A stretch of DNA of 64,000 bases. It comes from Escherichia coli (lineage in GTDB: Bacteria; Pseudomonadota; Gammaproteobacteria; Enterobacterales; Enterobacteriaceae). Where the stretch lies: assembly GCF_024502345.1 (NCBI RefSeq), contig NZ_JALDNN010000001.1; one strand, written 5' to 3'. The notes beneath the pieces are model-generated. The model searched no databases and was not told the DNA's origin. It was given only the letters and a program-made list of their open reading frames with translations. Shown in pieces: positions 45,487 to 45,900 of the stretch. The position numbers were made by a program, and so were the translations under genes. Every line of letters begins with the position of its first letter. The first letter of the stretch is position 1.

Positions 45487-45900
45487 TATTTCAGTCGTTT
45501 ACCTGCATCATCAACGACTTTCTCGCCGTCTTCCTTAGCAAATGCACCTTTTTGCGCATCCGGAAGAATATCCAGTACCACTTCGGAAGGACGGCACAGA
45601 CGCGTTCCCAATGGTGTCGCCACAATCGGGCGATTAATCAGGATCGGATAGTGATGTTGCTCATATCAATATCTCATTACAAAGTGAAAGAGAGACGTAG
45701 CGCCAGCGCGGCCAGCGTTACAAACAGCACAGGCAGAGTCATGATGATCCCGGTGCGGAAATAGTATCCCCAGGTGATGGTCATGTTCTTCTGTGAAAAG
45801 ACATGCAGCCAGAGTAGCGTTGCCAGGCTACCAATAGGTGTAATTTTCGGCCCCAGATCGCAGCCAATCACGTTGGCATAAATCATCGCCTCTTTGATAA
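45487..45900 (-). pseudogene. Remnants of an arsenic-resistance operon: arsB 3' fragment and arsC 3' fragment
   Basis: Minus-strand translations ...[63 protein letters not shown] (ArsB C-terminus) and ...LINRPIVATPLGTRLCRPSEVVLDILPDAQKGAFAKEDGEKVVDDAGKRLK (ArsC C-terminus). Confidence 0.75.

Follow-up and report, generated by a model that had tools for sequence, protein, structure and literature searches.

The question raised by this locus is whether the arsenic-resistance sequences lying between gene Z and a SIR2 gene still belong to a working operon, serve some other purpose, or are a relic. The window, i.e. the whole 64-kb stretch of DNA that was analysed, belongs to an E. coli chromosome, and its right part corresponds to proA beside tRNA-Thr (thrW) with a P4-type integrase. 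Gene Z (42774-45296, plus strand) codes for an 840-aa YeeR_C-domain protein (Pfam PF27347) downstream of the PDC-M09A/B candidate defence genes. The SIR2 gene (46053-49364, plus strand; Pfam SIR2_2) is Dsr1-like with a PADLOC E-value of 9e-86. The interval between them is, with high confidence, what stepwise decay has left of a minus-strand operon for arsenic resistance of the mobile arsRDABC type, and is non-functional. The homology to ars-operon DNA was determined to span 45458-45903, compared with 45487-45900 in the original prediction, whose coordinates were right to within a few bases.

The content of the interval was determined by tblastn searches of the 64-kb window with the intact Ars proteins of an E. 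coli arsRDABC cluster. Residues 356-429 of the 429-aa ArsB aligned to 45901-45680 with 97.3% identity (E 2.5e-41), and residues 87-141 of the 141-aa ArsC to 45653-45489 with 90.9% identity (E 8e-30). The family profiles gave the same picture. Positions 355-421 of 423 in Pfam PF02040 (ArsB) and 357-428 of 430 in NCBIfam NF011980 (ArsB) were matched with E-values of 6e-29 and 1.2e-37, respectively, and positions 88-141 of 141 in NCBIfam NF007456 (glutaredoxin-dependent ArsC) with 2.4e-29; the other ArsC family profile named was Pfam PF03960. The ORF listing contains two short minus-strand frames here, 45677-45886 (69 aa) and 45486-45623 (45 aa, ending ...KEDGEKVVDDAGKRLK). The original prediction, which placed the C-termini of ArsB and ArsC on the minus strand, was to be given up if no significant similarity to these proteins was found; the tblastn, Pfam and NCBIfam matches (E 1e-29 to 1e-41) bear it out and are far beyond chance.

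The remainder of the operon is missing: arsR, arsD, arsA, 83% of arsB and 58% of arsC. ArsR, ArsD, ArsA and ArsH had no significant tblastn match in the 64-kb window (all E ≥ 0.19; the best E-values of ArsR, ArsD and ArsA were 0.19-0.72), and no further match of ArsB, its 5'/N-terminal part included, was detected there (tblastn, E ≥ 0.19). An operon split by an insertion, with its 5' half elsewhere in the window, was considered and rejected, as tblastn and blastn with the whole arsRDABC and arsH cluster returned the two fragments only. The mostly deleted operon of the original prediction is thus confirmed, arsR and most of arsB having been lost by deletion.

The arsB 3' fragment occupies 45677-45903 on the minus strand and comprises 227 bp, codons 356-429 and the TAA stop (45679-45677). 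From its 5' part, arsB has lost about 1063 bp. Compared with the membrane protein of about 429 residues, only 74 of 429 are encoded, and the score of 130 bits is well below the NF011980 cut-off of 457 bits; the piece is a pseudogene fragment. The same piece is annotated in the E. coli ET826 and PSJ-29 genomes as 'ArsB/NhaD family transporter, incomplete, missing N-terminus'. It is followed by the native arsB-arsC intergenic spacer (45665-45676, minus strand), 12 nt with the sequence TGAGATATTGAT, identical to that of ET826 and with one mismatch to the intact operon OZ197100.

The arsC gene is preserved differently. A 5' stub at 45648-45664 (minus strand) holds the ATG (45664-45662) and the first five codons and ends in TAT (45650-45648), while a 3' piece at 45486-45650 (minus strand) holds codons ~88-141 and the TAA stop (45488-45486), out of frame with the kept start. 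The breakpoints were determined from a three-way DNA alignment, in which the window was compared with the near-identical ET826 island (E. coli) and with the intact operon of OZ197100. Against both of the latter, a gap of 247 columns opens after ATGAGCAACATCAC, with TAT at both of its sides. Translation from the kept ATG yields MSNITIRS*, with a stop after 8 codons. As read from this alignment, arsC is an internally deleted, frame-shifted gene with its own start rather than a plain 3' fragment. The claim that the 5' portions and arsR are missing therefore holds for arsR and for the 5' part of arsB; in the case of arsC, the start and five codons are kept and 247 bp were lost internally. The deleted codons ~6-87 include His8, Cys12, Ser15 and Arg60, which are listed as required for the activity of R773-type ArsC (PMC5593903). 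Neither an intact frame nor the catalytic residues are present, and the sequence scores 102 bits with NF007456, compared with the cut-off of 242 bits and 294 bits for the intact ET826 allele. This arsC is to be annotated as a pseudogene and not as an arsenate reductase.

In a functional ars operon, arsR and a promoter would be found upstream of arsB; here, that side is occupied by a stub of an IS66-family element. With arsR and the promoter gone, only 17% of ArsB still encoded and an ArsC without frame or catalytic residues, nothing points to a remaining role in arsenic resistance. The contribution of the remnant to resistance is zero, and screens for resistance genes should not score the locus. 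The scar is an ordinary pseudogene relic of a well-known operon, the arsB part of which is already a pseudogene in RefSeq for the sister genomes. Its value is that of a marker of island history. An Rfam search of 45100-46300 gave only matches far under the gathering scores (about 19-20 bits vs 38-49).

The upstream junction was determined as follows. The stub at 45904-45960 (plus strand) is an ISEc8-like remnant of the IS66 family, consisting of the last 57 bp with the right terminal inverted repeat, ...GTACGCTTAC, ending at 45960. Its identity to the ISEc8 right ends in thousands of E. coli genomes is 82-88%, and the IS66-family ends in 3045 plasmids match it at 85-89%, the match beginning at 45901. 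When the stub was aligned to two annotated ISEc8 insertions, it covered the last part of the transposase gene together with the right inverted repeat, and the match stopped at the IS boundary, which corresponds to 45960 of the window. The terminal repeat itself is present: the window reads ...CTCGCTGTACGCTTAC, ending at 45960, and GTAAGCG is the typical terminus of the IS66 family (PMC12888890). ISEc8 and other IS66-family elements are thus alike over the terminal ~57 bp, with the same end at the IS boundary, but only this stub is found here. A complete element is excluded, as the 57 bp are accompanied by no tnpA, tnpB, transposase gene or left end, and arsB follows from 45903. No full-length IS66-family relative with more than 90% identity to the stub was found among the rows examined.

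Inside arsB, the ars sequence passes into internal IS sequence, the two overlapping by 3 bp (CGC, 45901-45903), and the IS terminus faces the Dsr1 side, where the flank reads CGCTTAC/CCATCTAGAGAGGTTTCAGG. This orientation, together with the interior-to-interior fusion, indicates that the break was not made by IS insertion into arsB but by a deletion. In the first step of decay, an illegitimate deletion would have extended from codon ~356 of arsB to a point 57 bp short of the right end of an adjacent IS66 element; the junction is directly visible, and the mechanism is the probable one. Lost with it would be arsR and its promoter, ~2.4 kb of the IS, ~1063 bp of arsB and probably also arsA and arsD, while the IS terminus would have kept its connection to the DNA that precedes the Dsr1 (SIR2) gene. 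The order and mechanism proposed for this step are read from the junction alone.

The simplest version, contained in the original prediction, is that a single 5' deletion took arsR and the 5' parts of both arsB and arsC. It was right about the hairpin, the missing arsR and the C-terminal matches. However, with arsB standing before arsC in the operon, a single loss from the 5' side could not shorten the two together; arsC retains its ATG and five codons, preceded by the spacer and the stop of arsB; and in the relatives a truncated arsB stands beside a complete arsC. These three points require two independent events, and the single deletion is considered highly improbable. The remnant is the product of two separate events: an old arsB/IS66 deletion and a later, window-specific arsC deletion.

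Five complete E. coli genomes hold the whole interval at 99.4% identity, over 928 bp vs 681 bp here; the annotation there has a pseudogene for arsB and an intact arsC of 426 bp. Among complete E. coli genomes, the flanks were found in these five island carriers only. Further copies were found via exact-protein look-ups with the island ArsC allele, gene Z and the Dsr1 variant, and the truncated arrangement was returned every time. In all 22 related E. coli loci (19 assemblies/contigs), the IS66/arsB junction is identical and the 5' region of arsC undamaged; the gene was intact at 426 bp in 21 of them. These loci belong to E. coli thrW islands (ET826, PSJ-29, Z226-5/-6, 2018-05-2CC and 15 further assemblies/contigs), in which the junction, the gene Z and Dsr1 flanks and the terminator are identical to those of the window (99.4-100%). 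The thrW-island relatives carry the full 426-bp arsC, named 'glutaredoxin-dependent arsenate reductase' in RefSeq, whereas the window has the extra 247-bp deletion. In the remaining case, E. coli CP090277.1, an independent 1335-bp insertion of the IS3 family lies at the arsB-arsC junction (~13140-14480 of the extracted locus), and the arsC call is shortened to 121 aa.

The junction of the 247-bp deletion was absent from the 22 related E. coli loci (19 assemblies/contigs) and from the metagenome collection. In the last step of decay, 247 bp would have been lost between two TAT triplets, taking out arsC codons ~6-87 and shifting the frame; the loss itself is seen in the alignment and is specific to the window. 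The deletion, known from this one sequence, is the most recent of the events. A single sequence also leaves room for an assembly or consensus artefact, as the gap was seen in one of 23 copies, namely this window, and in none of the metagenome collection. In contrast, the region is non-repetitive, the junction is clean and has 3 bp of microhomology, as is typical of illegitimate recombination or replication slippage, and the same genome contains much other real decay of the island, including five IS insertions with target duplications. An artefact is accordingly very unlikely.

At the other end, the remnant is closed by a hairpin at 45461-45480 (minus strand). It has 8 pairs, 6 of which are G-C, in the arrangement AAGGGGGC-AAAT-GCCCCCTT with a 4-nt loop and a T-rich tail, and starts 6 nt past the arsC stop. 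The terminator scan of both strands gave ATTTGTTAAT as the minus-strand sequence after the hairpin, with the tail AUUUGUUAAU, and RNA folding resulted in an energy of -22 kcal/mol with z = -5.7 vs shuffles. The sequence features of an intrinsic (Rho-independent) terminator are thus present, a GC-rich stem-loop and a U-rich tract just past the last gene. An invariant stem (AAGGGGGC/GCCCCCTT) with a variable loop was found at the same place, 6-7 nt past the arsC stop, in three arsRDABC operons that are intact, those of E. coli OZ197100, Leclercia pE61_002 and E. cloacae pECL_A. The suggestion that the hairpin is the original terminator of the operon is supported by this shared stem and site behind three intact operons. 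The comparison with intact ars operons, proposed together with the prediction, was carried out, and both the arsB-arsC spacer and the post-arsC hairpin are common to the remnant and the intact arsRDABC operons. The hairpin was absent from the K-12 arsRBC locus and from a second arsRDABC type.

The ars homology ends 2-3 nt beyond the hairpin, at ~45458, and all plasmid and chromosomal ars matches start at 45458-45461. In the intact clusters, the hairpin is followed by a convergent GNAT gene; here, it is followed by the DNA downstream of gene Z. A further step would thus have joined the ars segment, cut 2-3 nt past the hairpin, to that DNA, and this boundary can be seen directly. In the plus-strand scan, the hairpin is terminator-like too, downstream of gene Z. 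It is the only part of the remnant that could plausibly still act, as a predicted terminator working in both directions, which would keep the gene Z operon and antisense transcription apart.

Two minor features lie near the ends of the remnant. On the minus strand, a 94-aa ORF (45202-45486) opens at the stop codon of arsC, crosses the hairpin and extends over the final 95 bp of gene Z. It is called as a gene by some pipelines in the relatives, but has no Pfam match; with this and the overlap with gene Z, it was treated as probably spurious. A second small inverted repeat, GACTGAATGATTCAGTC, was detected at 45999-46015, before the dsr1 start as annotated; the plus-strand scan rates it as terminator-like. 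Its half-site CAGTCGTTTAC recurs at the arsC 3' end (45493-45503).

The origin of the operon was determined from DNA identities. The arsB piece is 96.5-97.8% identical to arsRDABC operons vs 89.9% to K-12 arsRBC, and the arsC piece 94.5% identical to OZ197100 vs 85.8% to K-12. In the plasmid collection, 45458-45903 matched Enterobacter, Leclercia and Klebsiella plasmids at 93-94%. The closest known systems are the mobile arsRDABC operons of the R773 type (OZ197100, Leclercia adecarboxylata pE61_002 and Enterobacter cloacae pECL_A), with identities of 96.5% and 94.5% for the arsB and arsC 3' ends, respectively, in the case of OZ197100. They share the 12-nt arsB-arsC spacer and the identical post-arsC stem, but their convergent GNAT gene is absent here. 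The E. coli K-12 arsRBC genes (b3501-b3503) are homologous and stand in the same order, but have a different 3' flank without the hairpin and are not the source. The G+C content of the remnant is 49%, compared with 42% for the Dsr1 module and 46% for the gene X-Z module.

The fragment could in principle be the native chromosomal arsRBC, displaced by a rearrangement from the K-12 gor-arsRBC-yhiS locus, as native arsRBC is present in most E. coli genomes and the interval was matched in 4345 of 5426 genomes. However, the identity to K-12 arsB and arsC (89.9% and 85.8%) is lower than that to the mobile arsRDABC (96.5-97.8% and 94.5%), and the post-stop hairpin is not found at the K-12 locus. The island-carrying genomes have 2-3 places matching ars, which indicates an additional ars locus elsewhere. 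The displaced native operon is therefore extremely improbable. Judging by the identities, the source is the mobile arsRDABC lineage and not the native E. coli arsRBC, and by analogy with the nearest relatives, the lost operon probably had five genes (arsRDABC) rather than three.

The age of the IS66/arsB junction is indicated by its occurrence in a second host. A ~96%-identical compact Dsr1-Olokun-integrase island of ~11 kb was found in GCA_038039885.1 (9600-20600 of the extracted locus) and in several metagenome contigs. The host chromosome has 56% GC and its own tRNA-Thr(cgt), the sequence of which differs from that of the E. coli tRNA-Thr. The order is aldehyde dehydrogenase, 77 bp of arsB, IS66 stub, dsr1, Olokun-like genes and integrase. 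The IS66 stub and the junction are the same as here, and the 77 bp of arsB are joined directly to the DNA downstream of the chromosomal aldehyde dehydrogenase gene. The Dsr1 protein on record is the 1269-aa version starting with ATG. No att-like direct repeat of at least 10 bp shared with the tRNA-Thr side was detected at the arsB end of this island, which makes that end another deletion rather than a clean island boundary.

The presence of the junction in the compact island of another host indicates that the truncation predates the present arrangement and travels with the SIR2/Dsr1 module. By this distribution, the IS66/arsB junction is old and belongs to the edge of the Dsr1 cassette. The identical junction thus tags the Dsr1 cassette across two hosts and marks that the cassette once stood beside plasmid-type arsenic-resistance DNA. 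The original prediction that the operon was once part of this island is, in contrast, not demonstrable: the intact operon was found in none of 28 related loci, and the junction occurs also in a different host and context. The ancestral state, with an intact ars operon, an intact IS66 and Dsr1, was found in none of the E. coli complete genomes, plasmids, species representatives and metagenome contigs. Scans of the species-representative genomes with the exact junction and flanks gave 0 hits, and no plasmid record covered at least 80% of the interval.

A rival reading is that the remnant was co-opted: the stub with the first 77 bp of the arsB fragment as a promoter or 5' region of dsr1, the ArsB tail as a 69-aa membrane protein, or the orphan ArsC of the relatives as a reductase. 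The stub and the 77 bp are the sole parts kept in both island lineages, the 69-aa ORF is called by gene callers, and arsC is intact in 21 of 22 related loci. However, no sigma-70-like site was found on the plus strand of 45137-46270, and the stub and the arsB piece differ by ~3.7% between the lineages, about as much as the rest of the module, so there is no extra conservation. The arsC gene is promoterless and was destroyed in three independent ways, through the deletion here, the IS in CP090277.1 and, in the compact island, its complete loss. The diversity of the island copies (~5 SNPs in 933 bp) is too low to show constraint, and the selection test on the intact arsC of the relatives had accordingly no power. 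With this evidence, co-option of any of these parts has little probability. A related version is that the IS66 stub with 77 bp of arsB was domesticated as the Dsr1 promoter/5' regulatory region, and the ars terminator as a bidirectional insulator between PDC-M09/gene Z and Dsr1. This is held to be very unlikely as well; if true, a mobile defence cassette would have a functional boundary element in this 'junk'. The reading as a decayed, non-functional remnant is retained.

The remnant separates two phage-defence modules, ~38100-45296 and 46053-57267, intact versions of which were found in the related locus L003 (15821-30511). The PDC-M09A/B candidate system upstream of gene Z was detected by PADLOC with E-values of 2e-120 and 3e-214, respectively, and gene Z weakly resembles PDC-M09B. 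Dsr1 is followed by an Olokun-like OloB/OloA pair (PADLOC) adjoining the integrase. In some relatives, type I Zorya and type I restriction-modification systems are located further left. Dsr1 is intact at 1291 aa in the relatives; here, an ORF of 1103 aa is left, cut by an IS903B-like insertion at 49333-50391, as determined from the break in colinearity at 49333, the IS ends and a 9-bp duplication. The locus illustrates decay in which deletions and five IS insertions inactivated both neighbouring defence systems in this strain.

Several of these insertions were observed around the remnant. Two IS903B-like copies, 38064-39122 and 49333-50391, are 99.9% identical and inverted, with the 9-bp target duplications TCTCAAAAG and CCTTATCCC. 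The pair forms a composite arrangement of the Tn903-like kind around ~10.2 kb (39123-49332), in which the PDC-M09 genes, gene Z, the ars remnant and the 5' 3.3 kb of dsr1 could be moved or inverted as a unit. In comparison with E. coli PSJ-29, further insertions are an IS5-like ISKpn26 at 34431-35627, an IS110-family element at 39487-40850 inside the PDC-M09 region, and an IS3 insertion at 57267-58524 (orfA 99 aa, orfB 288 aa) between the integrase and tRNA-Thr. At the far left, positions 1-25000 of the window contain the locus of heat resistance (clpK, an FtsH-like protease and kefB-GI) adjoining the mhp genes. In 77 E. coli genomes this part is found at 99.8% identity; among them are Z226-5/-6, also carriers of the thrW island.
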